Assembly: GCA_965235115.1 (NCBI GenBank)
Contig: OZ249443.1
Location: forward strand, 4,402,001-4,466,000
Reading direction: 5' to 3'
Length of the DNA: 64,000 nucleotides
Origin: Laetmonice hystrix
Lineage: Eukaryota
Position numbers and translations under genes: made by a program
The notes under the pieces: generated by a model
Told to the model about the DNA's origin: nothing
The model's input: the letters and a program-made list of their open reading frames with translations, nothing else
Databases searched by the model: none
In this document: positions 8,361 through 28,980 of the stretch, piece after piece
Position numbering within the stretch: position 1 is the first letter of the stretch
Layout: each line of letters opens with the position of its first letter

Positions 8361-8748
8361 AGACGTCAGAGCCCAGACCAGTGTGTGCACAGTGAGAACT
8401 TATAAGGATCCAAAGGAAATTAGTTTGCGAAGTTCCTGTAATTTGCTACATCCTTGAGCAGTAATTCCTTATAAGGAAAAAACGGTATTTTGACGTCACA
8501 ACACATCCAGGCCTCTTGATATAGAAATACCTCATGAGTCTGGGTGTGACTCTTCCAAGAGGCTGGGGAGGAGGCTTCCTGAGGAGGCTTCCTGAGGAGG
8601 ACATCTGGATGGTGAGGGTAAGGACGCAGATCTTACATGGTAATACAGCCCAAATGTTGGATCAGGTAGCCCGGGAGGCCATGAGAACTGGTTTGTCAGA
8701 TCCATCCATGGCAGGAAAGACCTAAATTTTCAGTTGTTCAGAAACCTT

Positions 8749-9792
8749 GAGTTTTTCCTGAGTCTGGGGGCTTGTAACAGCATTATCTAGCGAATTCTTG
8801 ATGGTGTGACCAGAGAGACCAGGGACCTCGAGTTTGTCCTGAGTCTGGGGGCTTGTAACAGCATTATCTAGCGAATTCTTGATGGTGTGACCAGAGAGAC
8901 CAGGGACCTCGAGTTTGTCCTGAGTCTGGGGGCTTGTAATCTAGCGAATTCTTGATGGTGTGACCAGAGGGACCAGGAACCTCGAGTTTGTCCTGAGTCT
9001 GGGGGCTTGTAACAGCATTATCTAGCGAACTCTTGATGGTGTGACCAGAGGGACCAGGGACCTTGAGTTTGTCCTGAGTCTGGGGGCTTGTAACAGCATT
9101 ATCTAGCGAATTCTTGATGGTGTGACCAGAGGGACCAGGGACCTCGAGTTTGTCCTGAGTCTGGGGGCTTGTAACAGCATTATCTAGCGAATTCTTGATG
9201 GTGTGACCAGAGGGACCAGGGACCTCGAGTTTGTCCTGAGTCTGGGGGCTTGTAACAGCATTATCTAGCGAATTCTTGATGGTGTGACCAGAGGGACCAG
9301 GGACCTCGAGTTTGTCCTGAGTCTAGGGGCTTGTAACAGCATTATCTAGCGAATTCTTGATGGTGTGACCAGAGGGACCAGGGACCTCGAGTTTGTCCTG
9401 AGTCTGGGGGCTTGTAACAGCATTATCTAGCGAACTCTTGATGGTGTGACCAGAGGGACCAGGGACCTCGAGTTTGTCCTGAGTCTGGGGGCTTGTAACA
9501 GCATTATCTAGCGAATTCTTGATGGTGTGACCAGAGGGACCAGGGACCTCGAGTTTGTCCTGAGTCTGGGGGCTTGTAACAACATTATCTAGCGAATTCT
9601 TGATGGTGTGACCAGAGGGACCAGGGACCTCAAGTTTGTCCTGAGTCTGGGGGCTTGTAACAGCATTATCTAGCGAATTCTTGATGGTGTGACCAGAGGG
9701 ACCAGGGACCTCGAGTTTGTCCTGAGTCTGGGGGCTTGTAACAGCATTATCTAGCGAATTCTTGATGGTGGGACCAGAGGGACCAGGGACCT
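8749..9792. repeat. 81 bp minisatellite, ~13 copies
   Basis: Unit GAGTTTGTCCTGAGTCTGGGGGCTTGTAACAGCATTATCTAGCGAATTCTTGATGGTGTGACCAGAGGGACCAGGGACCTC; starts at 8830 and 8911; one unit has an 8 bp deletion. Confidence 0.95.
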
Positions 9793-9824
9793 CTCAGCAA
9801 GGATTTCTCTCCGGATACTGATAG

Positions 9825-9840
9825 AACGCCACCTGGTGGA
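9825..9840 (-). promoter_or_regulatory. CTCF-like motif
   Basis: Minus strand TCCACCAGGTGGCGTT matches the CTCF core CCACYAGRKGGCRS. Confidence 0.35.
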
Positions 9841-12800
9841 GTGTGCAGAAGGTGGTATTCTAGCTCCTCCATTGGTGACTGATGTTTAGGGAGGCAGCCT
9901 GAACGTTTTGAGTTCTTGGGAAAGATTGGAAAGGCAACTTTGAGATCACAAACACTGAAGCCAAGAGAATCCATGGTTCCTCAACTTGGAATCAGTTTTA
10001 TTATGTAGTACATGGAGACAGGACCAAGATGATTGAGAGAGATTCAGAGTGTTTTTTTATTGGAGATTGTTGGGTGAAGTGGAGGGAAGCGGAGGGAGCC
10101 GTAACTAGGGGCTGGAGACAGAGCATGACCATCCATAGCGACTGACAGTTGGCCGAGAAAACCCTGTCAACGCTTGGCAGCCTGAACAAATAGTGGCCTT
10201 GTTGGGGGGTAGCGTTTGGTGATTGAAGGTTGCTGGGGGGGGGGGGGGGGGTCGAGCCACCCCCACCCCCACCCCACCACTACAAACGCCCTCCCAATCA
10301 AAACAAACGTTCACGCAGGTGAAGCTCGTCTCCCAACAGTATCTTTCCCGTCCCATTGAGTCTCGACCCCAGACAAAGAGACAGTTTGTTTGACCACACC
10401 ATAGGCCATTGTGCTCAGGTCGGAGGGCAAACCTTTTTTTCAGAAATCTTTTTTAGCCTTTAGTTGCAGTGGTGTATGGGGTGACCAGGTTATCAGGGTG
10501 ACTTCAATACTGTGTTGGTTCAGAGCAATAAGGCGTGCAGACCCATGCGTGCTCTGAGGGCCTAGGAAGATTCACAAACTGCCACAAGCGTAGCGTCTCA
10601 ACCCCCTGGCATTGAGCAGATATTTGCCCTGAAGTCATGCTTGATTAGAATAACATTTATCGCATTAAAAAACAATTTCCATTTTTGAAGTTTTTCTTTT
10701 ACCATACTTGTCCAAAATCATGAGCTGAACTGTAGGGAAGCTACTTCTTACACAAGGTACAGAATTTAACATCTCCAGTGGCTATTCATCGTAAGAGATT
10801 CATGTACCAAGGCAAGGCACATCAACTTTTGCGGGCAAGGTCTGCAGATGGAAGAAATCATGGCCTCTAATGGATGGAAGTGTAGCAGTCAGGCAGTCAA
10901 GGCTGTGTGTGGGGTCGCAGTATATTAACATAATGGACCCAATGCTAGACCTCGAGTAAATTGTGTAGTAGATGAAGTAGATTACTTGATAAGCCTTGGT
11001 ATTATAAATACCACTGGACCAGATTCAAGTGGGGTACGGTATTCAAGTTGGTTTATGGTCTACAATTCAAAACTCTGTCACGGTCACGTCTGCTACCGTT
11101 ATGACAAGAAGCTATAGCAGTATAGTTGAAAAGATTAATTGCAGAAAAGAAGAAGAAGAAAGAAATGGGTGTGTTTCAATTCATTAGGGATGGGCATGCG
11201 TGTTGGCGTCACGTACCTGTTTTTATACTGTCTGTATTGGAGTTGGGTGCGGGCGGGGGCGGAGTGTATGTTGTGTGTATTATCAGTTTATTGAGAGTAG
11301 TGATCATGGCGGCTTCATGTCTTTGTCTTTGATCCAATCGTTGTTATAATGGCATGCCTGCCAGAGCCAGCTGACAGGATCCCTTCCGTGTCAGACGTAC
11401 AAAGGACATTTCCTTACCAGCGCAGGCTCCACTTTAAACGTGAACGGTTGAGAGGTTGGCCATTGTCATGCTACTTGATATCCTGAGGGCCAAGCGAACG
11501 CAGCTGATGCCAACAAATAGAACCATATCAAGGGCGTACAGCGGGCACCTGTCTGCCTGGATATTGATCCAGTTTATTTATACGGAGAGGAGAAAACATG
11601 TGTTCATGACAGAATGTTTCAATTCAACCTGGCCATTTCTTGGTTTAGGAGGAATGCGGCAGTGGCAGGGGGTGGTTGGGCTTTTCTTGTCTTGTCATTA
11701 GACCCATGTGGAAAGTATTGGCACATGGGGATTCGACTCACTAACGGTCATGATTGTAGGCATTGCAAAAACCTGCGGGTGAAAATCTTTAATTGAAATG
11801 AACAGTCATTGTCTGCCAAGGCGTGTTAGTTCAGACTTTGCCGCCATTGCAGATTTTTAGTTCTTTCCCGCCAAATTTCGTGAAATTTTATCCAATTCTG
11901 GGAGAAGTAAATATCTAATGCTGGGCCGATCTAGACGTGGTGTGACCAAAGAACACATCGGGACCAGCTGAACTGAAGTGTTAAGTAACCAGGTCAACCC
12001 AGCCACTGTCAGCACTGACGGCGGCTGTAAACGCTGACTTGGATAATTAATGCAGTTCTTTATACATTTTGTACTTAGTCTCACTTTGTGTCGGCTGCCG
12101 AACGTAGTGACCTCTGACCCGGCCCAGTGGGGTGACCTTGGCAGGTCAGTAACCTTGACCTGTCAGTCTGACCCAAGCAGAGATCTATCTACATAAGGTC
12201 AGCTGTTACCGGAGTGGCACGGAGGTCAGCTACGAGTTCTGTTGGCAATTGTAATTTATTGTAACATATTGAGGACCAGGTTCCTTACATGTTGGGAATT
12301 AACGCTTTAAGATATCCAAACCACGCCAAAAATGCCTGAATTTTAAGTCATCTCCTGAAATAATACTCTTGAAAAGGGCGAAAACAGGTACGAGGGAGTG
12401 TTCGCCGACAGTACTGGAAGAGTATAAGTGAAGCGTAAGTGAGAAAAAGACGGTGTAGATGTCAGATCCTATATTTACTAGTGAACACAGCCGGAGGAAG
12501 ACTCTCCCTGTTAATTGGACACGTTGAATTATGCTTTACGTCTCTGATACATGTCAGGTTTTTCAGGCGAACTAATAAGGCATTCAGGAACATTCATTGC
12601 TCCTCGCCTGCCCTCTGACCAAAAAATGTTCATGAATCATTTTGAAAAAAATGTCGCACAACTACAAGGTAGCCCTTGGAGGTTTTTCTTACAAACAGTG
12701 TGGCAATGTGGAAAAGAAAACCACGGTAGCCGATCTCCGTGAGGGATGTTAGAAAGAAAGGAAATCGACAAAGAATTGTTAGCAGGATGTCAATGAGAGG

Positions 12801-13156: not shown

Positions 13157-13360
13157 TCTCTTTAACAGGAATTCTCTCCAGCTTCTGTATTTCATGTTCT
13201 TTTAATTTTATGTAAAAACCTTCCGTAGCCGAGGGGAGGAACTGGCGGAGCTGATTCATCAGTGTGTAGACTGATCGGAGGAGCGTTTATTAGGAACAGT
13301 GGCCGGAGGAGGAGTTGGGGGGGATAGAAAGGTACTCATCTGTTTCACCGAGGGCTTCTT

Positions 13361-14082
13361 GGATCCCAACGTCGCCGACCACTTGATGGCGCAGCAGCCA
13401 TGGCAGCCGTCAGGATCCCAACGTCACCGACCACTTGATGGCGCAGCAACCATGGCAGCCGTCAGGATCCCAACGTCACCGACCACTTCATGGCGCAGCA
13501 ACCATGGCAGCCGTCAGGATCCCAACGTGACCCACCACTTGATGGCGCAGCAACCATGGCAGCCGTCAGGATCCCAACGTGACCCACCACTTGATGGCGC
13601 AGCAACCATGGCAGCCGTCAGGATCCCAACGTCACCGACCACTTGATGGCGCAGCAGCCATGGCAGCCGTCAGGATCCCAACGTGACCGACCACTTGATG
13701 GCGCAGCAGCCATGGCAGCCGTCAGGATCCCAACGTCGCCGACCACTTGATGGCGCAGCAGCCATGGCAGCCGTCAGGATCCCAACGTCACCGACCACTT
13801 GATGGCGCAGCAGCCATGGCAGCCGTCAGGATCCCAACGTCACCGACCAGTTGATGGCGCAGCAGCCATGACAGCCGTCAGGATCCCAACGTCACCGACC
13901 ACTTCATGGTGTAGCAGCCATGGCAGTCGTCAGGATCCCAACGTCACCGACCACTTGATGGCGCAGCAACCATGGCAGCCGTCAGGATCCCAACGTCACC
14001 GACCACTTGATGGCGCAGCAACCATGGCAGCCGTCAGGATCCCAACGTCACCGACCACTTGATGGCGTAGCAGCCATGGCAG
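13361..14082. repeat. 52 bp minisatellite, ~14 copies
   Basis: Unit GGATCCCAACGTCACCGACCACTTGATGGCGCAGCAGCCATGGCAGCCGTCA; period 52 is not a multiple of 3. Confidence 0.95.
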
Positions 14083-14695
14083 CCCTCTGCCAGATGAAGG
14101 GTTGGAGAATCCGCGGGCTGCCTGGGTATTTCCACCACCAGCTGCTAGGAAACTGGCCGGGATAGCCCCATATTGCACCCTAATGTCTCTGACCTTTGAC
14201 CTTGGAGACTCCCCGCCATTCTCCCTGCATACCCCCTAGCCCATTAAGTTGCCATGGAAACCAGAGGGTGAAGGAATGAGGGCTTCGGACTTGCCCCCGA
14301 CATTTTATCAAACGCTACGTGCGGATGTTGAATTCATGAATCGACAACTGTTTAAAATGAAATGCTTTTTTACCAGTCACAAAAGATCTTGTAGATGGCA
14401 TGCTTTGAAATACCGTTCTTCTAATTCCAATCTGGGGAAATACAAGACCTCTCTGTGTAGGACACAAAAGCCTGTTGAGAGTTTAAAATATTTTTGTCTT
14501 CTTCTCTGGCAGTGGCTAAACGTTTTGGAGTGGGACTTCAACAATTGGAAGGGAATCCATTTCATAGACGTAGACAGGGGGCCTCTGCAGAAAGGTGTGG
14601 GCGGCACCATTGCACAGCAGGGACTGCGCTTTCAGTGGTTGTCAATGGTAGTGGGCCGAGGCCTGCTAAGTGGGGTGAGGAGGGTTGGGAGAGAC

Positions 14696-15746
14696 TGCGT
14701 TGGGGTGTTTTCTTTATGCTATTGGTTTTATATGAGATGTTTAGATGATGTTTATACTTTCCGTTCGTTCTTTGAGTTTGGGGTTTAAAGGTCCGTTCTC
14801 CACCAGGCTTGCGCCACTATTGTCATTTTACGAGAGGTACTAAGGTTCTTCCCAACGCTTAAAAGGGGCTAGCATCAAATGGTAGGGTTTCCACTCCTAA
14901 AGGTAAACGGTTATAGATGATTTCCCAGGTTCTACCACAACATTGACATCTGCGATAAAGTTCTACTATTTATTAACGATCCGTGAACAATCCTTCGTCT
15001 TCTTGTGAGTACATGGGTTGGTGACGTGAATGAATACACTTGCGATATTATCCGATGAGTACAGAAACCAGACCAATAGGTAACACCGTTGAGGTAATAT
15101 ATTCCTTTGCCGAGCACTCTCAGGAGAATAACGGAATCCCCGTTCCGTTTCATATAACTTCCAGAACACTTCGTTTCACCAATATATTCCGGGCACTAAT
15201 ACATGTACACTCTTAATCCATGGAACTTTCCAAACACTTGATAATCCGGCTTTCGTATACTCCCTCGTATAGTCCCGTAAATTCCGTTCTCTGGATCTTA
15301 TCGTATCCCACAACCTAGTGAAGACCACCAGCTCACTCCTCTCTCCCACTTTCTGATCTTAAGACACTGCACTGCGCCTTTGATTCCTTCTATTTTCCTA
15401 TTTATACCCCCCTTATTTTCGATCTATGTCAGTTTTCTCGATCTATGTCATGTCCTAACCTGCACTCTTCTCCTATTGGCCTAAAGTGTTACTACCTCCT
15501 AATTATTCCGGCCTGGTTTCCTTTATCTATCTGGGTCTTAGTTCTCCTTCTCTGCTTGCCTATTGGTCTAAAGTGTTACTGCGTCCCAATTATTCCGGCC
15601 TGGTTTCCTTTGCCTATCTGGGTCTTAGCTCCCCTTCTCTGCTCGCCTATTGGTCTAAAGTGCTACTGCGTCCCAATTATACCTCTCTCTATTTCTGCTC
15701 TGACTCTCAGGTTTCTGTTCCTATCCGACCCCAGTGTGCCAACACA
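14696..15746 (-). repeat. 3' LTR (1051 bp)
   Basis: Matches 23484-24540 by eye apart from a 6 bp indel near the U5 end; AATAAA on - at 14969-14974. Confidence 0.93.
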
Positions 15747-15765
15747 CCCGCCGGGTCCCCTTTTT
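15747..15765 (-). other. Putative polypurine tract
   Basis: Minus strand AAAAAGGGGACCCGGCGGG immediately precedes the 3' LTR TG; the tract is imperfect. Confidence 0.45.
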
Positions 15766-16170: not shown

Positions 16171-16935
16171 TTATCCGTTATCGTTGCCTAAGTCCATCAC
16201 TGCACACGTAAAAACCCAAAGTTTTTTTTTTTTTTTTTTTTTTTCTAAGCATGCTTCCTCCCCGTGTACGGGAAAAATTAATTTCTTGTTTCGTCCTCCT
16301 CGTGGCACCTTGTTGTTTGTTACATTGATTAAGTGAATATTTTCCTGTGATAATTCGTTTTGCAATTTCCCAAAACCTTGTAAACCTCGAGAAATCGCTT
16401 TTATAGCCTTGGCATTCTTAACTATATCTCTATTTCGTCCCGTGCCAAACAGATGGTAGCTGATATCTGATATGATCTCAAAGGGTGCTCTGGGCTCTCT
16501 CCTGGCTGACCACTCATCATTTGAGAGTAACCCTATTGCCTCATCGATGATACCTTGAACCGTCCTCATGGTCTCATTTAACCCGTGCGCTGCCGATTTT
16601 ATGTATGTGCTGAACCTCATACAAGCCTTGTGTACGCCAATTCCGTATGTAACCCCGCGTCGACCTCTGAGGTTACACACCTTCAATAGATTATCCACAT
16701 GTCCGAACTCTACCCCTGGGACTTCCACCTTGAAGACCTGGTAGAAGAAAACCGACTCTGCTGTTGATATTAGCTTAGATGGCTGGAAAACTATTCCGTA
16801 ATCCAGCCTCAACTCCGGGTCCTGCAGAAACACCGCCTCCGACTGTCCAATTATCATTATCATCATCATTAGTATCCCCAAAACTTCTCGGGATACTCTG
16901 GCCTGGCCTTCGTTGGTCACTCCTTGCTTCACCAT
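16171..16935 (-). pseudogene. env: env-like class I fusion glycoprotein, C-terminally truncated
   Basis: Signal-peptide-like VLGILMMMIMIIGQSEA, Cys-containing N-terminal subunit, basic cleavage site RREPR, hydrophobic fusion-peptide-like APFEIISDISYHLFGTG and a heptad-like segment, then abrupt low-complexity sequence with no TM helix. The ORF is open from TTG 17259; ATG 16935 best fits the signal peptide. Confidence 0.7.
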
Positions 16936-17398
16936 GGAACCCTCAGGGGGTTTCACGCGTGTGGACGGGTTTATTATGCCTGTTGCTGGGCGCCGTGTCG
17001 GCCAGCTATGTCTTTCATTGTGGAGGGTACCTGCGTCCCAAGACATCCGTGCACCCTCGTATACATTAGCCATAGACGAGTTAGGGGTGCCGGGCCTCAT
17101 GGCTGCGGCGGCCCTGCAGGTCATACCTCCGTCTGCCGTTTCTCCTTCAACCGTTACTACTGGTTCGCAGACTTCTCCTACCCCTATTACCTCTTCCTTG
17201 ACCACGGCTACCTCTTCCTCGACTTCCGTCGGGCCCATTCGTGTCCGAAGGGAACCCAATCGTTACCGACCTTACAGCCCCGTGACCGAGGCTGTGTCTC
17301 CGTCCGTCCCCGAAGATGGCCAACCGTCCACAGCAGTTTCCTACACCTCTATGTCCACTGAAGATATCTCCACCCTCCTTCAATTGGCCTCGGAGTAA
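16934..17398 (+). CDS. Antisense ORF (154 aa, S/T/P-rich) inside the retrotransposon
   Basis: ATG in ACCATGG Kozak context; open to TAA 17396-17398; fills the interval between the putative env start and the pol stop. Confidence 0.4.
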   Translation: MEPSGGFTRVDGFIMPVAGRRVGQLCLSLWRVPASQDIRAPSYTLAIDELGVPGLMAAAALQVIPPSAVSPSTVTTGSQTSPTPITSSLTTATSSSTSVGPIRVRREPNRYRPYSPVTEAVSPSVPEDGQPSTAVSYTSMSTEDISTLLQLASE

Positions 17399-17428: not shown

Positions 17429-20400
17429 CTAACACATATTATCGTCCGGGTTGAATCCTTCACTGAAGTCCTTTCTCTTGACCCAGGACTTCTGTTTTCC
17501 TTTTGTCCACTGAACTAGATATGTCCATTCACCGGACTTAAGTTGTCTTTTCCTTATAATCCTATCAATGGACCAGTATGTATCCAGGTGATCTTCCTTA
17601 ATGTCCCGATGTGTTCTTGTTCGATGCTCCTCCCGGACTGGGACGTCCCTGGCCGTATCACTCTTTTTATGTGGTTGAGTTGTATGTGTGTCCCCAGGTG
17701 AGGTGGCTGGCTCCTCCGGCACTGGTATGTCCTCTGGATCTCCTAGCATAGGAGCCCATGTTAAATACGCACGCTTGACCTTATTGACATTATAATAATG
17801 GTCCAATGTTTTTCCTGTTGATAACGATCTAAGTTTGATCATGTGATCGTCCTTCTTGTCTACCACCCGATATGGCCCTGTATATCTCGCACTAAATTTG
17901 GAAACACGATTTGCTGCACATGTAGGGTCATACAAATAGACACAGTCCCCCACATCAATGTCCGTCGGCCTCGCACCTACATCCAACTTATTTCTCATCT
18001 GCTGCTCGTACTCATCTGTAACCTTAGTTGCCATATCGCGCATTACCTTCAGACGTTCCACAACATCTGCAAATTGTTCATTATCATCCCGTGGGCCCGT
18101 ATCCTGCCCATCGTTTATGACGGGAACGTTCATAGGGAGTGCGTCCCTGCCATACAACAGCGTGTATGGTGAAAATCCTGTTCTTGCATTGACCGTTGAT
18201 CGTATAATCCACAAAGCTGATGGAATCAATTTCGGCCACCCGACATGTGCTCCTTCAATATAACATGAAATCTTATCCTCCAACGATTTATGTAATCTTT
18301 CTACTCTTGCATTTCCCTTTGGCATATGCCCGCTGGTAAATGATTGTCGACATCCCACTCTGGAAGTCACTTCCTTCATAACTTTGCTGAGAAACGATTT
18401 TCCTCTGTCTGAATGCAGTCGTTCTACTTTTCCATAACGGCAAATAATTTGTGTCAGAAAAACATCCGCTACTGTTTTGGCAGACTGATCTTTGGTGGGG
18501 AAAGCCTCTGGCCATCCCGTACATACATCGATGAAGGTCAGTATGTATTTGTATTGATCAGCCGTTATCAGTGGTCCAATGAAATCACACTGTACCCACT
18601 GAAATGGATACGCTGGCCTATCCCAAGACTTGGCCATTGCCCTGGGATGCGGCACTCGCTTCCTGAATGCGCATGTTGAACAGCGTCGAACGTAATCCGA
18701 TATCTCCGCCATCATTCCTCTCCAATAAAATTTCGAAGCTACCTTTTCCATGAGCGCTGTGCGACCCAAATGTCCTCCTGCCAAAATGTCATCATGTAAT
18801 AACTTTAGAACATCTCCCGTTAGTGTTGCTGGAATTACTATACGAGGCTCTAGTCTTATAATTTTCTTACTGTGATGTCGTACCCGTGGAAAATGGCATA
18901 AAATTCCCGGCGGTGTAACTCGCATATACTCTGCCTCCGCCACTAATTTTGTAGCCTTTTGGAAATCCTCGGGCAGACTCCCGTTTTCTAAATAATCCAT
19001 CATTTTCCGACATTCCTCGTCCTTTTTCTGCTCCTCCATAATATACTCTACTGACAAACTCGCATTATTATCATCGGCGCCCTTTTTGGTCGCCATTTCA
19101 CATTGCTTGTCCATGTTCTTTTTGACGTTATCCTCCTTTTCCTTTGACAGACTTACTGTGTTGTCCGGGATTAGCGGTATCAATGCTGTCGCCTGTGTCA
19201 GACCGTCTGTCTGCACATGGTATTTTTCTAGGGTGGGAGCGACCACACCCTCTTGTAGGCCTATTTCATTTACATCCCCTTTTCTTGAGTTGTCCCTTTT
19301 GGGGGCATTCCTCCCGGGGGCATCCTCTTCTGGGGCATCCTCTTCTGGGGCATCCCTTCCTGGGGCATCCTTTCCTGGCGCATCTCTGTGCGCATAAGGG
19401 CCATCCGTCTTGCGGGCATCCTCTTCTGGGGCATCCCTTCTTGGGGCATCCTTTCCTGGCGCATCTCTGTGCGCATAAGGGCCATCCGTCTTGCGGGCAT
19501 CCTCTTCTGGGGCATCCCTTCCTGGGGCATCCGTCCTGCGGGCGTCTCCTAGTGAGGCTACTTCTCCTATTGAGATTTCTACTGCTACTGAGTCCTCCCC
19601 CCTTGTTTGTGGAGTGGGCGTCCCCCTCCTTTCTGTCACCTCTATGTCTTCTTCATTTCCATTGTTTACAACACAACAGGCTCTATCCATAGACATTATC
19701 CTGTCGATTCCGATAGGCGGGTCACACTCCTGCGATGGCGGGTCTCCCGTCTGTACTCGCGATAAATAATCCGCCATATAGTGCTTTTTCCCTGGTTCAT
19801 AGACATATGATATGTCCATTCCTCCGAGATATAAGGCCCACCGTTTGAGGCGATTTGACGGTGCCTTATACGCATTCTCCAATAACGAAAGTAATGGTTT
19901 GTGGTCTGTAACTACTACAACCGTTGCTCCCTCCAATACATCCTCGAAATGTCTTAATGCACGCACCACTGATAAACCTTCCTTTTCCGAAACTGTATAA
20001 TTAAGCTCCGCTTTGTTCATCGTACATCCCCAATAACTAATTGGCCTATAAATTCCATTCACAAAGTGACACAATGCTGCTCCGCACGAAGTGTCCGAGC
20101 TGTCCGTTAGTAGGTAAAATGTTTCCTGAAAGTCTGGATGAATTAATATAGGTGGTCGAACTAGTGCTTCTTTAAGCGCATGGTATGCTTCTTGCTCCTT
20201 TTCTGACCATGCAAATTTTACTCCTTTTTTCAGTAACGCATACAGAGGCGTCGCCCGCTCTGCAAATCGTGGGATGAAAGCCCGGTAATATGAACATAAT
20301 CCCAGGAATGCTCTCACTGTTTTCGAGTTGTGTGGCCGACCAAATCGATCCACTTTGTCCAGAATCCTTTGCTGTGTTTTTAGTCCCTCTCTTGATATAA

Positions 20401-22024
20401 CATATCCTAGGAAATCTATCTCAGACCTACACCATTCACATTTTTCCGGTTTCAGTTTTAATCCTGCTTGAATAAGAGCCTTCAACAAAGTCGAAACATT
20501 CTCCAAATGTTCCTGAAACCCGGAATCAAAAGCTAGACAATCGTCCATGAATGAGACACATACCGACGGAACTAGTCCTCTTAAGGCTAATGACATGACT
20601 TTTGAGAAAGCCCACGGTGCTCCCACTAATCCCATGGGAATCTTCGTGTATTGAACAATTCCTTGTGTTGGTGCCTCGAATGCTGTGTACTGTCGTGAAC
20701 CTTCCTCTAGATCGCACTGAAAATATCCACTGGATAAGTCGACTCTGGACATCAGCGTCGGCTTTTTCGCTGCCAAAATCAGAAATAACGACCTGGCCGT
20801 AGGCATGGGAAATTTGTTTCTGATCGTTACTTTGTTAAGTCTGCGGAAATCCGTGCACATTCTAATCCTTCCATCTGGCTTACGAACTACCACAATAGGG
20901 CTACGCCATACCGAATCAGACGGCTCCAATATTCCAATATCCAATAACTGATCGACATGTTGACTTAATTCCCTGAGATGTCTTGGGTTATACCGGTACG
21001 GAGTAGTCGTAATTGGTCGTGTTCCCTCCTGTAACTCAATCCGCATAGGCGCTAAATCACAGCTTCCTAACTCCTCCAACGTGACAGCAAAAGCGGCCCT
21101 GTGCTGCTGTAACATCTCCTCAAAGATGATCCTCTGGTCAGCTGTTAGGTCTGACCCCGAGAGGTCAAAGTTAATAGGTTCCAGGCCCTTATGTAATTTT
21201 TGTGTTGATAGAACCGTTTTCGGCTCCGTGCTGTCCTCGCTGCTCTCCTGTACCTGTATGTTTATATCTACCAACGCCACCGGCTCCGTTGGTTCAATGA
21301 TGATAATTTCCTCTGAGGGATTCATCATCCGCACCAATACTCTGTTTTCGCATACCTTTGTCACGGCCTTTCCAGTAATAAACTTTCCTGTCTCGACCCC
21401 TGTGGTGGATGTCATAGCCACCGTGCCATCCTGCAATTCTTCTGATAATACACATGCTAAAATCACCTCAGAAAATGGTGGCACGGCCGTAGATGTCTCT
21501 ACACCCGCTGTTATCAGATCTCCAAGCCGTATCTCTCCCTTGTCATAATTCAGTTTTGCGCCATACTTGATCAAAAAGTCTCTCCCTAGAATTATGTTGT
21601 ATTGTAAATTTGGAAGGACTGTAAAAGAATGGCATACCAATTTATCGCCGATTTTAAATTCTAACTGTATCACTTCCTCCACTAAAACAGCTGATCCATC
21701 TGCCATAGTTACCAACTCGTGCACTTCTTCTATTTCTTGTATATTTTCCTTATGCCAATTTGACCTAGTACTTTTGTTCACAAAGGAATGGCTGGCACAC
21801 GTATCCAGTGCCGCCCAAATCGTTCCACCTTCTCCACAGTTTATCGGTATATATGGGGGTGTGCCTATGTCTTTCTTAAACGGCACCCTTATGGAATTGT
21901 CGTCCCCCTGACCCAGGCTTACTGTTCCTGCTGTCGAGGGACGACTCCGGCGTTTCCCTGACGTTTTTCCAGCCTGGCCGATGGTATGATCTCTGGGCGG
22001 TTTCCCCTTTCCGGCTGCCTCCAT
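17429..22024 (-). CDS. pol: Pol polyprotein: protease, RT, RNase H, integrase, chromodomain
   Basis: 1531 aa open frame: LDTCAS protease motif, RT (SFMDD, RMCTDFRRLN), RNase H (LTDSS...EKE...TDHKPL), integrase HHCC (HDDILAGGH...CSTC), D-D-E (CDFIG, HSDRG, RVERL), GPY motif, C-terminal chromodomain-like segment. Probably expressed by -1 frameshift from gag. Confidence 0.95.
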   Translation of the reverse strand: MEAAGKGKPPRDHTIGQAGKTSGKRRSRPSTAGTVSLGQGDDNSIRVPFKKDIGTPPYIPINCGEGGTIWAALDTCASHSFVNKSTRSNWHKENIQEIEEVHELVTMADGSAVLVEEVIQLEFKIGDKLVCHSFTVLPNLQYNIILGRDFLIKYGAKLNYDKGEIRLGDLITAGVETSTAVPPFSEVILACVLSEELQDGTVAMTSTTGVETGKFITGKAVTKVCENRVLVRMMNPSEEIIIIEPTEPVALVDINIQVQESSEDSTEPKTVLSTQKLHKGLEPINFDLSGSDLTADQRIIFEEMLQQHRAAFAVTLEELGSCDLAPMRIELQEGTRPITTTPYRYNPRHLRELSQHVDQLLDIGILEPSDSVWRSPIVVVRKPDGRIRMCTDFRRLNKVTIRNKFPMPTARSLFLILAAKKPTLMSRVDLSSGYFQCDLEEGSRQYTAFEAPTQGIVQYTKIPMGLVGAPWAFSKVMSLALRGLVPSVCVSFMDDCLAFDSGFQEHLENVSTLLKALIQAGLKLKPEKCEWCRSEIDFLGYVISREGLKTQQRILDKVDRFGRPHNSKTVRAFLGLCSYYRAFIPRFAERATPLYALLKKGVKFAWSEKEQEAYHALKEALVRPPILIHPDFQETFYLLTDSSDTSCGAALCHFVNGIYRPISYWGCTMNKAELNYTVSEKEGLSVVRALRHFEDVLEGATVVVVTDHKPLLSLLENAYKAPSNRLKRWALYLGGMDISYVYEPGKKHYMADYLSRVQTGDPPSQECDPPIGIDRIMSMDRACCVVNNGNEEDIEVTERRGTPTPQTRGEDSVAVEISIGEVASLGDARRTDAPGRDAPEEDARKTDGPYAHRDAPGKDAPRRDAPEEDARKTDGPYAHRDAPGKDAPGRDAPEEDAPEEDAPGRNAPKRDNSRKGDVNEIGLQEGVVAPTLEKYHVQTDGLTQATALIPLIPDNTVSLSKEKEDNVKKNMDKQCEMATKKGADDNNASLSVEYIMEEQKKDEECRKMMDYLENGSLPEDFQKATKLVAEAEYMRVTPPGILCHFPRVRHHSKKIIRLEPRIVIPATLTGDVLKLLHDDILAGGHLGRTALMEKVASKFYWRGMMAEISDYVRRCSTCAFRKRVPHPRAMAKSWDRPAYPFQWVQCDFIGPLITADQYKYILTFIDVCTGWPEAFPTKDQSAKTVADVFLTQIICRYGKVERLHSDRGKSFLSKVMKEVTSRVGCRQSFTSGHMPKGNARVERLHKSLEDKISCYIEGAHVGWPKLIPSALWIIRSTVNARTGFSPYTLLYGRDALPMNVPVINDGQDTGPRDDNEQFADVVERLKVMRDMATKVTDEYEQQMRNKLDVGARPTDIDVGDCVYLYDPTCAANRVSKFSARYTGPYRVVDKKDDHMIKLRSLSTGKTLDHYYNVNKVKRAYLTWAPMLGDPEDIPVPEEPATSPGDTHTTQPHKKSDTARDVPVREEHRTRTHRDIKEDHLDTYWSIDRIIRKRQLKSGEWTYLVQWTKGKQKSWVKRKDFSEGFNPDDNMC
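21899..21958 (-). promoter_or_regulatory. -1 programmed ribosomal frameshift signal (gag-pol)
   Basis: G GGA AAC heptamer in the gag frame (21958-21952), 6 nt spacer, then stem GTCGTCCC/GGGACGAC; pol is in the -1 frame relative to gag. Confidence 0.75.
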
Positions 22025-23283
22025 CTTCCATCTCTCGGACGGTCGCCTCTAAACCATTGACAATCCCCCCTTGATTGATGTTGGCGACAATAGGGAACAC
22101 CCTCGTCCCATGGACACGGGAACATTGTCGGTGGCGGCCTACGACCTCGTGCGAATCCACGGTCATATGGCGGTGTAACTTCATTCTCCTGACCTGGCCT
22201 GGTGGGCGACTGTCGGTCTCCCCGTGGTGGGCCATATTTTCGGGTCTGTCCCGCCTCCAGTCTGGCCAGGGCTGCCAAAATTTCTTGCATGAGGCTTGTA
22301 GGCTGGTTCGCTGCCGCACACGATTTCTCTTTTCCCTGGACCGATTCCAGCCTTGAGGCCATCCGTACTGCCTCAGTGAAATCCACAGGGTTTTGCACCG
22401 CTAGCTGGTTTGACAATGAAGCCTCGAGTCCTCCAATAAATACTGATAATAAAATCTGCTCGGAAACTTTATATTCGGCCTGTTTTTTCCGCAGGGTCCC
22501 AGCAAATTCCAATGCCGTCTGTCCCCGTCGCTGCTTTAACGCAAAGATATCTCTATGTTTTTGCCATCCCGGCCTTTTATCACTAAAAATGTCCGTTAAT
22601 CGCGTCTTCAGCGCCGTATATGTTGCCCGGTCCGCCGGATCTAACGCTTTCATCCAATCCGCTGCCGTACCTTTCAATCCATGTAGTGCCATGGCCAGGA
22701 TGTGGTCGTCGGGCCATTTATAAATACGTGCTAAACTCTCCGTTTCGTCAAAATACGTTCTGATGCATTCATCTGATTTCCCTTGAAATGTTGGTAACTG
22801 TAAATGCGGCATCCTAATCCCATTATTTCGTGCGTGCATTACAGGACTATCCCTTCCAGATGTGGAGCTATTTGCAGCCTCCTGCGGTGGCGGCAGTGCT
22901 TGTTGCCCCGCAGGAAGAACGGCAGGTGGCTGCTGTAGCACCTGCTGTTGTTGTTGTTGCTGCTGCGGTTGTTGCTGCTGCTGCAGTTGTTGTTGCTGCT
23001 GCAGTTGTTGTGGGGAGAGAGGTGGTGGCCCTGCTTCCTCCACCAGGTTGAGCTGTCCCCGATCCATATCTTCTCGTGGTGGTTCTATTGGCGGCAGCCC
23101 CTGTGCTCCTCCGCCTAAATTAGCCATTTGTCTATAATAGGGATTCTCGGCAATATCCTCAGTTGTGTATATATGTCCTTGTATACGTACTCTATCTCCT
23201 TCCAGTTCAATTTGTTGGAAGTTCGGATCTGACCTTAGTTGTCTTCTTTTCCAGATCGGCGGTGTGTGCGTCCCTTCTGCCAT
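21919..23283 (-). CDS. gag: Gag (454 aa from ATG 23283)
   Basis: Retrotransposon capsid-like region LQLPTFQGKSDECIRTYF...ALHGLKGTAADW...LKQRRGQTALEFA; poly-Q tract; R/P/G-rich C-terminus; overlaps the start of the pol frame. Confidence 0.9.
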   Translation of the reverse strand: MAEGTHTPPIWKRRQLRSDPNFQQIELEGDRVRIQGHIYTTEDIAENPYYRQMANLGGGAQGLPPIEPPREDMDRGQLNLVEEAGPPPLSPQQLQQQQQLQQQQQPQQQQQQQQVLQQPPAVLPAGQQALPPPQEAANSSTSGRDSPVMHARNNGIRMPHLQLPTFQGKSDECIRTYFDETESLARIYKWPDDHILAMALHGLKGTAADWMKALDPADRATYTALKTRLTDIFSDKRPGWQKHRDIFALKQRRGQTALEFAGTLRKKQAEYKVSEQILLSVFIGGLEASLSNQLAVQNPVDFTEAVRMASRLESVQGKEKSCAAANQPTSLMQEILAALARLEAGQTRKYGPPRGDRQSPTRPGQENEVTPPYDRGFARGRRPPPTMFPCPWDEGVPYCRQHQSRGDCQWFRGDRPRDGRWRQPERGNRPEIIPSARLEKRQGNAGVVPRQQEQ

Positions 23284-23470: not shown

Positions 23471-23481
23471 ATTCTCCACCA
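23471..23481 (-). other. Primer binding site (tRNA-Ala type)
   Basis: TGGTGGAGAAT lies 2 nt after the 5' LTR; it is complementary to the ...AUUCUCCA-CCA 3' end of animal tRNA-Ala(AGC), recalled from memory. Confidence 0.7.
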
Positions 23482-23483
23482 GA

Positions 23484-24540
23484 TGCGTTGGGGTGTTGTT
23501 TGTTTCTTTATGCTATTGGTTTTATATGAGATGTTTAGATGATGTTTATACTTTCCGTTCGTTCTTTGAGTTTGGGGTTTAAAGGTCCGTTCTCCACCAG
23601 GCTTGCGCCACTATTGTCATTTTACGAGAGGTACTAAGGTTCTTCCCAACGCTTAAAAGGGGCTAGCATCAAATGGTAGGGTTTCCACTCCTAAAGGTAA
23701 ACGGTTATAGATGATTTCCCAGGTTCTACCACAACATTGACATCTGCGATAAAGTTCTACTATTTATTAACGATCCGTGAACAATCCTTCGTCTTCTTGT
23801 GAGTACATGGGTTGGTGACGTGAATGAATACACTTGCGATATTATCCGATGAGTACAGAAACCAGACCAATAGGTAACACCGTTGAGGTAATATATTCCT
23901 TTGCCGAGCACTCTCAGGAGAATAACGGAATCCCCGTTCCGTTTCATATAACTTCCAGAACACTTCGTTTCACCAATATATTCCGGGCACTAATACATGT
24001 ACACTCTTAATCCATGGAACTTTCCAAACACTTGATAATCCGGCTTTCGTATACTCCCTCGTATAGTCCCGTAAATTCCGTTCTCTGGATCTTATCGTAT
24101 CCCACAACCTAGTGAAGACCACCAGCTCACTCCTCTCTCCCACTTTCTGATCTTAAGACACTGCACTGCGCCTTTGATTCCTTCTATTTTCCTATTTATA
24201 CCCCCCTTATTTTCGATCTATGTCAGTTTTCTCGATCTATGTCATGTCCTAACCTGCACTCTTCTCCTATTGGCCTAAAGTGTTACTACCTCCTAATTAT
24301 TCCGGCCTGGTTTCCTTTATCTATCTGGGTCTTAGTTCTCCTTCTCTGCTTGCCTATTGGTCTAAAGTGTTACTGCGTCCCAATTATTCCGGCCTGGTTT
24401 CCTTTGCCTATCTGGGTCTTAGCTCCCCTTCTCTGCTCGCCTATTGGTCTAAAGTGCTACTGCGTCCCAATTATACCTCTCTCTATTTCTGCTCTGACTC
24501 TCAGGTTTCTGTTCCTATCCGACCCCAGTGTGCCAACACA
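23484..24540 (-). repeat. 5' LTR (1057 bp)
   Basis: Direct repeat of 14696-15746; TATAAAT on - at 24194-24200; 87 bp internal repeats each with a CCAAT box upstream of the TATA. Confidence 0.93.
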
Positions 24541-25652: not shown

Positions 25653-25942
25653 ATCAACAAGAGGAAGAGTGGGAAATAAAAACTATCAAGTGCCCCCGGG
25701 TGGGTGGCATTGATAGCGGCTTGCGGCCGGAGTGGGTCTTTAATGTACGGTGGCCGGGGAGGGTGGGATTTAATGTACGATGGCCAGGGAGGGCGGGTTC
25801 GGCTTGGTGCGGGGAAAGGCAGACTTTGATTGCGATCAGCTCATTTCGTTGGGATGTGTATAAATTTGTAGCGGTCAGATGGGTTACTGTGAGCTGGCCC
25901 CAGCGGTGCCGGGGGCATGTCAGCAGGACTGTCTCTATCTGT
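25653..25942. repeat. 290 bp direct repeat, left copy
   Basis: Matches 28691-28980 (offset 3038). Confidence 0.92.
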
Positions 25943-28690
25943 ATTTTTCTTTTGAAATGCACGGGCATCAGGGGTAACCCAATTACTTTGACAATGTCCC
26001 TAAAGAGAAAAGTTGTATAGTCCTCTACAGGAATCGAACCCAGGCCCTAAGATTACTGCACCCATTCGCATAGCATAAGGTGTCGACATCCATGCCCACT
26101 AGGCCACCGCCACTCCCCTAAAAAAGGAGCTTTGGTGGTCGAGCAGGACAATGGACCCTCTCCCCTACACACATCTTTTTGAAATGAGACGGAATCCATA
26201 TTTTCCTAGTTAGAGCTACACATGATTTCTACCGAACATTGACTGTTAAGGTAATCCTGGCACTGGCGTAGACTGTATTTTTCTTTTGAAATGCACGGGC
26301 ATCAGGGGTAACCCAATTACTTTGACAATGTCCCTAAAGAGAAAAGTTGTATAGTCCTCTACAGGAATCGAACCCAGGCCCTAAGATTACTGCACCCATT
26401 CGCATAGCATAAGGTGTCGACATCCATGCCCACTAGGCCACCGCCACTCCCCTAAAAAAGGAGCTTTGGTGGTCGAGCAGGACAATGGACCCTCTCCCCT
26501 ACACACATCTTTTTGAAATGAGACGGAATCCATATTTTCCTAGTTAGAGCTACACATGATTTCTACCGAACATTGACTGTTAAGGTAATCCTGGCACTGG
26601 CGTAGACTGTATTTTTCTTTTGAAATGCACGGGCATCAGGGGTAACCCAATTACTTTGACAATGTCCCTAAAGAGAAAAGTTGTATAGTCCTCTACAGGA
26701 ATCGAACCCAGGCCCTAAGATTACTGCACCCATTCGCATAGCATAAGGTGTCGACATCCATGCCCACTAGGCCACCGCCACTCCCCTAAAAAAGGAGCTT
26801 TGGTGGTCGAGCAGGACAATGGACCCTCTCCCCTACACACATCTTTTTGAAATGAGACGGAATCCATATTTTCCTAGTTAGAGCTACACATGATTTCTAC
26901 CGAACATTGACTGTTAAGGTAATCCTGGCACTGGCGTAGACTGTATTTTTCTTTTGAAATGCACGGGCATCAGGGGTAACCCAATTACTTTGACAATGTC
27001 CCTAAAGAGAAAAGTTGTATAGTCCTCTACAGGAATCGAACCCAGGCCCTAAGATTACTGCACCCATTCGCATAGCATAAGGTGTCGACATCCATGCCCA
27101 CTAGGCCACCGCCACTCCCCTAAAAAAGGAGCTTTGGTGGTCGAGCAGGACAATGGACCCTCTCCCCTACACACATCTTTTTGAAATGAGACGGAATCCA
27201 TATTTTCCTAGTTAGAGCTACACATGATTTCTACCGAACATTGACTGTTAAGGTAATCCTGGCACTGGCGTAGACTGTATTTTTCTTTTGAAATGCACGG
27301 GCATCAGGGGTAACCCAATTACTTTGACAATGTCCCTAAAGAGAAAAGTTGTATAGTCCTCTACAGGAATCGAACCCAGGCCCTAAGATTACTGCACCCA
27401 TTCGCATAGCATAAGGTGTCGACATCCATGCCCACTAGGCCACCGCCACTCCCCTAAAAAAGGAGCTTTGGTGGTCGAGCAGGACAATGGACCCTCTCCC
27501 CTACACACATCTTTTTGAAATGAGACGGAATCCATATTTTCCTAGTTAGAGCTACACATGATTTCTACCGAACATTGACTGTTAAGGTAATCCTGGCACT
27601 GGCGTAGACTGTATTTTTCTTTTGAAATGCACGGGCATCAGGGGTAACCCAATTACTTTGACAATGTCCCTAAAGAGAAAAGTTGTATAGTCCTCTACAG
27701 GAATCGAACCCAGGCCCTAAGATTACTGCACCCATTCGCATAGCATAAGGTGTCGACATCCATGCCCACTAGGCCACCGCCACTCCCCTAAAAAAGGAGC
27801 TTTGGTGGTCGAGCAGGACAATGGACCCTCTCCCCTACACACATCTTTTTGAAATGAGACGGAATCCATATTTTCCTAGTTAGAGCTACACATGATTTCT
27901 ACCGAACATTGACTGTTAAGGTAATCCTGGCACTGGCGTAGACTGTATTTTTCTTTTGAAATGCACGGGCATCAGGGGTAACCCAATTACTTTGACAATG
28001 TCCCTAAAGAGAAAAGTTGTATAGTCCTCTACAGGAATCGAACCCAGGCCCTAAGATTACTGCACCCATTCGCATAGCATAAGGTGTCGACATCCATGCC
28101 CACTAGGCCACCGCCACTCCCCTAAAAAAGGAGCTTTGGTGGTCGAGCAGGACAATGGACCCTCTCCCCTACACACATCTTTTTGAAATGAGACGGAATC
28201 CATATTTTCCTAGTTAGAGCTACACATGATTTCTACCGAACATTGACTGTTAAGGTAATCCTGGCACTGGCGTAGACTGTATTTTTCTTTTGAAATGCAC
28301 GGGCATCAGGGGTAACCCAATTACTTTGACAATGTCCCTAAAGAGAAAAGTTGTATAGTCCTCTACAGGAATCGAACCCAGGCCCTAAGATTACTGCACC
28401 CATTCGCATAGCATAAGGTGTCGACATCCATGCCCACTAGGCCACCGCCACTCCCCTAAAAAAGGAGCTTTGGTGGTCGAGCAGGACAATGGACCCTCTC
28501 CCCTACACACATCTTTTTGAAATGAGACGGAATCCATATTTTCCTAGTTAGAGCTACACATGATTTCTACCGAACATTGACTGTTAAGGTAATCCTGGCA
28601 CTGGCGTAGACTGTATTTTTCTTTTGAAATGCACGGGCATCAGGGGTAACCCAATTACTTTGACAATGTCCCTAAAGAGAAAAGTTGTAT
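25939..28690. repeat. Tandem array of a 334 bp unit, 8 full copies plus an 80 bp partial
   Basis: Unit starts at 25939, 26273, 26607, 26941, 27275, 27609, 27943, 28277 and 28611; copies look identical by eye. Confidence 0.97.
26008..26117 (-). ncRNA. tRNA-derived/SINE-like Pol III unit (one per 334 bp repeat)
   Basis: A box TGGCCTAGTGG (26106-26096), B box GGTTCGATTCC (26040-26030), TTTT terminator at 26011-26008. The acceptor stem does not pair, so this is not a canonical tRNA. Confidence 0.55.
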
Positions 28691-28980
28691 ATCAACAAGA
28701 GGAAGAGTGGGAAATAAAAACTATCAAGTGCCCCCGGGTGGGTGGCATTGATAGCGGCTTGCGGCCGGAGTGGGTCTTTAATGTACGGTGGCCGGGGAGG
28801 GTGGGATTTAATGTACGATGGCCAGGGAGGGCGGGTTCGGCTTGGTGCGGGGAAAGGCAGACTTTGATTGCGATCAGCTCATTTCGTTGGGATGTGTATA
28901 AATTTGTAGCGGTCAGATGGGTTACTGTGAGCTGGCCCCAGCGGTGCCGGGGGCATGTCAGCAGGACTGTCTCTATCTGT
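28691..28980. repeat. 290 bp direct repeat, right copy
   Basis: Duplicate of 25653-25942. Confidence 0.92.

Follow-up and report, generated by a model that had tools for sequence, protein, structure and literature searches.

A very young env-deleted Ty3/gypsy element in Laetmonice hystrix and a predicted matrix-like module in the uninterrupted env of its family

Structure of the LTR element

We analyzed a 64,000-nt stretch of Laetmonice hystrix DNA (contig OZ249443.1, positions 4,402,001 to 4,466,000), referred to here as the window. A complete LTR element occupies its minus strand from 24540 to 14696, and all element features below lie on that strand. The 5' LTR (23484..24540, 1057 nt, TG...CA) and the 3' LTR (14696..15746, 1051 nt) show 0 substitutions and one gap run between them, so the insertion is very recent. 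A primer-binding site-like stretch, which we take to be tRNA-Ala-like, lies 2 nt past the 5' LTR (23471..23481) and occupies the same place in all seven copies of the family described below, while a purine-rich, polypurine tract-like stretch (15747..15765) adjoins the 3' LTR. Both gag (21919..23283; 454 aa counted from the first Met, Retrotrans_gag and Ty3_capsid) and pol (17429..22048; 1539 aa stop to stop, encoding protease, RT, RNase H and integrase) are uninterrupted. The pol frame overlaps gag in the -1 frame, and a gag-pol frameshift is presumed. The LTRs, the gag and the pol order (PR-RT-RH-IN) that define a Ty3/gypsy element were all present. Within pol, between RNase H and integrase (19287-19574), short tandem repeats encode an acidic, proline-rich low-complexity insert.

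The host was judged to be an invertebrate in an earlier sequence-only reading of this DNA, and the mitochondrial COX1 of the assembly agrees. At positions assigned from residues that we take to be conserved in COX1, it has AGA/AGG at Ser-like positions and AAA at Lys-like positions without ATG, and it reads by table 5, the invertebrate code. Motifs that we take to be typical of annelids would make the host annelid-like.

The ORF downstream of pol is the front of an env gene

The ORF under study (16171-16935, 254 aa) starts 494 nt after the pol stop. Its first 209 codons (16309..16935) are an env remnant that encodes a signal peptide with a hydrophobic core (16846-16884), F2, the furin-type R-x-x-R site RREPR (16489-16503), the fusion-peptide-like stretch APFEIISDISYHLFGTG (16438-16488) and the start of HR1, with a heptad segment at 16309-16437. 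The signal peptide, RREPR, fusion-peptide-like stretch and heptads downstream of pol were thus found as the sequence-only reading had described them. Only these 209 codons belong to env, and 201 of the 209 are identical to those of a sister copy, C1 (locus L019), in which gag, pol and an 895-aa env are all uninterrupted. At 16306-16318 lies a deletion junction with microhomology at 12 of 13 nt. Relative to C1, ~1.99 kb is gone there, comprising most of F1, both transmembrane helices and the matrix-like domain discussed below. The last 45 codons (16171..16308), past the junction, are out of frame: they run through the end of env in another frame and through 3' UTR with an A-run read as poly-Lys, and are not env protein.

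What the window ORF retains is the beginning of a gene for an F-type class I fusogen, left as a deletion remnant in a very young chromodomain-bearing Ty3/gypsy element. Its earlier description as an envelope-like gene holds, with the correction that only the front part is env. By itself, the 254-aa remnant had no match in Pfam or in PDB sequences, so the F identity was taken from the longer copy and its relatives.

The env back part was lost repeatedly

Searches of the genome with an env query and with a pol-end query returned the same seven copies at ≥98% identity. The back part of env is lost in 6/7 of them, with 1.9-2.1 kb gone at four different breakpoints; exact microhomology of 5-10 nt was present at three of the junctions and imperfect microhomology at the fourth. 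Copies C7a and C7b have their flanks in common and were therefore counted as one insertion. Copies C2 and C7c share a junction, and since their flanks differ and each has its own 4-bp duplication, this deleted form has been copied into a second location. Such 4-bp target-site duplications were found at 4/6 distinct sites, the exceptions being the window copy and the C7a/C7b site. The LTR pairs of the copies differ by 0-6 substitutions. In the coordinates of L019 (934-1154 and 2913-3062), four independent env deletions start within ~220 nt past the fusion peptide, and three of them end within ~10 nt of each other. In C2, ~2.1 kb of unrelated sequence (L023 1176-3333) separates the env remnant from the 3' LTR.

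It is extremely improbable that a chimera or mis-join in the assembly, and not a real env-deleted insertion, gave rise to the window copy. Its insertion has no target-site duplication, although its LTRs carry no substitutions, and its junction is not among the joints listed in the run contigs. However, its LTRs are 0 substitutions apart yet ~2% different from those of the other copies, both of its flanks (14696 and 24540) occur once in the genome, two joints of similar deletions in other copies were seen in the run contigs, and a copy-specific spacer is covered by contigs from 3/3 runs (one sample). We regard the window copy as a real insertion whose missing duplication possibly reflects aberrant integration or flank deletion. 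The spacer (17000..17312, ~311 nt) lies between pol and env and is missing from the other six copies, C1 with its uninterrupted env included. A genome search with it returned only itself, its first 100 nt are 71% identical to a diverged copy, C13, and it is probably ancestral. It keeps the env frame open upstream via an acidic stretch with an in-frame ATG.

The retained front part could also be read as a product of selection, in which the truncated env is kept as a secreted fragment of F2, fusion peptide and HR1 that would stop env-intact relatives from fusing or superinfecting. The four deletions, and a fifth in C13, all leave the stretch from signal peptide to fusion peptide in place, and the 5' breaks in the window's family are bunched at codons 223-297; since the copies were recovered from pol too, this pattern is not query bias. 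Against this, an open front part needs no selection because the copies are very young, as their LTR pairs attest; the front in the L007 copy is already broken (no ORF ≥180 aa); the junction microhomology is as expected from template switching; and a cis-acting signal in 5' env would give the same pattern. We therefore consider selection for the fragment very unlikely.

According to a commentary, the Drosophila errantivirus rover is a family that is passing from an env-intact to an env-less state (PMC12993057). As in the window's family, env is defective in most rover insertions and intact in some. The two differ in that rover belongs to the insect gypsy clade and its tissue expression is known. 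With the ORF under study comes a small natural series in which a young family has lost env repeatedly.

The full-length env carries an F-type fusogen

Eight env rows of this genome were combined into a profile, which matched 1879 clusters (50% identity) at E 0.001; the best 150 of these were retrieved. Among aligned relatives with a residue at the furin column, 91/117 have R-x-x-R, and [LMI]FG follows that column within 20 aa in 96/117 aligned relatives, so the pattern at the site is more than chance. The Pfam cut-off for Baculo_F was passed by 11/40 scanned relatives. A 111-row profile searched against the PDB matched 9w4c/9w4d ('fusion protein'), and these matches (E 1e-17 to 2e-16) place both the furin site and the fusion peptide in register. 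The ectodomain model of the sister env (pLDDT 82.9) matched the F proteins of RSV, hMPV, NDV, hPIV3 and henipavirus. The ectodomain thus resembles baculovirus F and pneumo- and paramyxovirus F by profile and fold, with a structural identity of 7-13% to the pneumo- and paramyxovirus chains. In these F proteins, a single anchor is followed by no more than a short tail.

As judged from its sequence and predicted fold, the 895-aa env of C1 comprises a signal peptide, F2, R-x-x-R, fusion peptide, F1 and a C-terminal transmembrane anchor at ~aa 635-653, which is deleted in the window copy. Homology and predicted fold together make it almost certain that the F part is a class I fusogen of the F type, for which furin cleavage and membrane fusion activity are predicted. 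The class I assignment made in the sequence-only reading is borne out by these comparisons of C1 env and its relatives; the two things on which it hinged, structural similarity to class I fusogens and a longer copy with transmembrane segments, were both found, the latter in C1. The infectious nature, present or past, which that reading proposed for the lineage would fit such an env and is a conjecture.

A chromodomain follows the integrase

The last 55 aa of pol (17432..17596), C-terminal to the integrase, form a chromodomain. The Pfam Chromo match to the end of pol was weak (E 0.024, below cut-off), and a profile of five sequences, from five families of this genome, was searched against the PDB: 23/23 matches were chromodomain proteins, the best at E 7e-9, which confirms the domain as real. 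Among the positions that we take to be those of the aromatic cage, the third appears to be missing in the window chromodomain. In a quick RT tree, whose rows are unnamed or automatically named elements, the five families group together (support 99) inside a lineage with patchy chromodomain. The domain was found in the families of this genome and in P0188 and P0204, and was undetected in most of the closest RT relatives (P0179-P0205), which suggests repeated chromodomain loss within one lineage.

The sequence-only reading called the combination of env and chromodomain uncommon, and this was not supported. Chary & Hayashi (eLife 2026, PMC13524379) had already described a clade with F-type env and chromodomain; their supplement labels 28/139 listed elements 'Chromodomain', and 6/6 chromodomain-positive elements that we looked up there are ENV_F. 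The window element is of this described kind, here as a truncated copy. Like their ancient errantiviruses of Cnidaria, Mollusca and Annelida (PMC13524379), the window's family has the order LTR-gag-pol-env, a Ty3/gypsy pol, a chromodomain after the integrase, an F-type env in which a furin site and a fusion peptide are present, several recent copies and an invertebrate host. That study covers ectodomains only, and truncated elements were removed from it, so the env-deleted majority seen here lies outside its coverage. The terms 'matrix', 'budding', 'ESCRT' and 'cytoplasmic' have zero occurrences in its main text (PMC13524379).

A predicted second, matrix-like membrane module lies behind F

In C1 env, the F anchor is followed by RKHR and a brief hydrophobic stretch that ends in A-S-A. 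A short linker then leads to another hydrophobic helix (~aa 698-716), behind which lie a domain of ~110 aa (aa 727-837) and a variable tail. Two hydrophobic segments near the end were found in 119/126 long relatives, a set that includes 13 near-duplicate cluster members, and most columns of the domain are filled in 103/104 database rows. A small residue occupies the putative cleavage position in 94/110 rows, and at least two basic residues follow the first transmembrane segment in 83/110; the linker has a mean length of 23 aa and is 38% S/T/P. Across four families of this genome, the domain is conserved at least as well as the ectodomain. These features point to an internal signal peptide, whose cleavage would free a second membrane protein of type I that has its domain in the cytosol. 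While the F part of the earlier env description stands, this second protein of the full gene lay outside its view of the remnant alone.

The predicted fold of the module, a putative beta-sandwich of the kind seen in mononegavirus matrix (Borna M, VP40 N-domain), best resembles bornavirus matrix protein, at a low Z of 5.1, a Foldseek E of 0.2 and 12-13% identity to the matrix protein of Borna disease virus (PDB 3f1j, 4hit). A PDB search with a 32-row domain profile gave no match at E 10, and sequence homology is not expected to be visible at 12% identity; no matrix Pfam was found among the 32 domain members. Borna M has a gene of its own and is a free protein, and the module differs in that, by prediction, a transmembrane helix tethers it within the env polyprotein. 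The best predicted-structure matches of the module were glycoproteins of chu-like viruses (Jingchuvirales), given as whole targets without the range matched; most of these are presumably from Aliusviridae. Chu-like viruses differ in being negative-strand RNA viruses, not retroelements. Their glycoproteins are long class I fusogens (Viro3D, PMC12583693), and no matrix gene is named for the order Jingchuvirales (PMC10770922). A description of the module was found neither in the literature nor by term search of PMC13524379, a scope that leaves subscription journals, figures and the deposited models of that study outside view.

Late-domain motifs and a model for budding

Matrix and Gag proteins recruit ESCRT through the late domains YPxL, P[ST]AP and PPxY, as treated in PMC3509680. 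At least one of these motifs was found in the last 90 aa of 34/113 long representatives; 1000 shuffles that preserved composition gave 5.0 (maximum 13). The enrichment came from YPxL (24 vs 2.6) and P[ST]AP (12 vs 0.5), and PPxY gave no signal (6 vs 2.0). L/MYPxL is present in 3/6 family tails of this genome, and no late motif was found in the tail of C1, which represents the family of the window element. The window gag (454 aa) has no PTAP, YPxL or PPxY motif.

Alternatively, the element could be an ordinary F-type ancient errantivirus and the module a conserved tail in the cytosol or an accessory protein of the membrane, serving trafficking, F folding or capsid capture through a generic beta-sandwich unrelated to viral matrix. 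The low fold scores, the missing sequence link to matrix proteins and the C1 tail without a late motif all speak for this, which we consider rather unlikely. We favor, as probable, the reading that the window element is a copy that inserted very recently and has its env deleted, and that the full env joins an F-type fusogen to a predicted bornavirus-matrix-like membrane protein, likely a budding aid; a matrix role of the module in budding is similarly probable.

In this pathway, RKHR, the short hydrophobic run and A-x-A would act as the internal signal peptide, and a signal peptidase cut would free the second type I protein, with an outer part of ~23 aa rich in S/T/P, its transmembrane helix and the cytosolic beta domain. 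The beta domain may line the inner membrane face like the matrix proteins of negative-strand viruses, linking capsids to F, and the YPxL and P[ST]AP motifs of the tail may recruit ESCRT for scission. Since the back of its env is lost, the window copy would move within the cell in the manner of ordinary retrotransposons; translation of its remnant would yield a secreted fragment that lacks an anchor. A review states that gypsy Gag lacks myristoylation and treats the use of ESCRT by errantiviruses as an open point (PMC3383448). A matrix-like, late-domain-bearing env protein would be a direct, testable answer to how errantivirus capsids gain an envelope in this lineage.

A broader proposal, to which we give slightly less than even weight, is that env throughout this very large invertebrate Ty3/gypsy group (the 1879 clusters) is an F and matrix polyprotein, containing an anchored homolog of bornavirus and filovirus matrix with ESCRT late motifs. 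The same cassette would form the tail of the matrix-less chu-like glycoproteins, budding would rely on an env-encoded matrix of the negative-strand-virus type and not on Gag, and the free mononegavirus M gene may have a common origin with the tethered domain. If true, this would supply a candidate for the matrix not listed in the Jingchuvirales profile, and the fusogen would no longer be the only tie between retroelement env and the envelope cassettes of negative-strand viruses.

Other repeats and env families

A tandem array of 334-nt units adjoins the element (25939-28691), with eight copies identical. Further arrays in the window lie at 8623-9886 (81 nt), 13257-14232 (52 nt), 37641-38595 (56-58 nt) and 41099-41992 (66 nt). 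Elsewhere in this genome, other env families have the same architecture (L031, L055-L065, L066, L069 and L071), several with open frames of ~895-915 aa and most with the same chromodomain. Six copies of one such family have 42 synonymous vs 25 non-synonymous variable codons.
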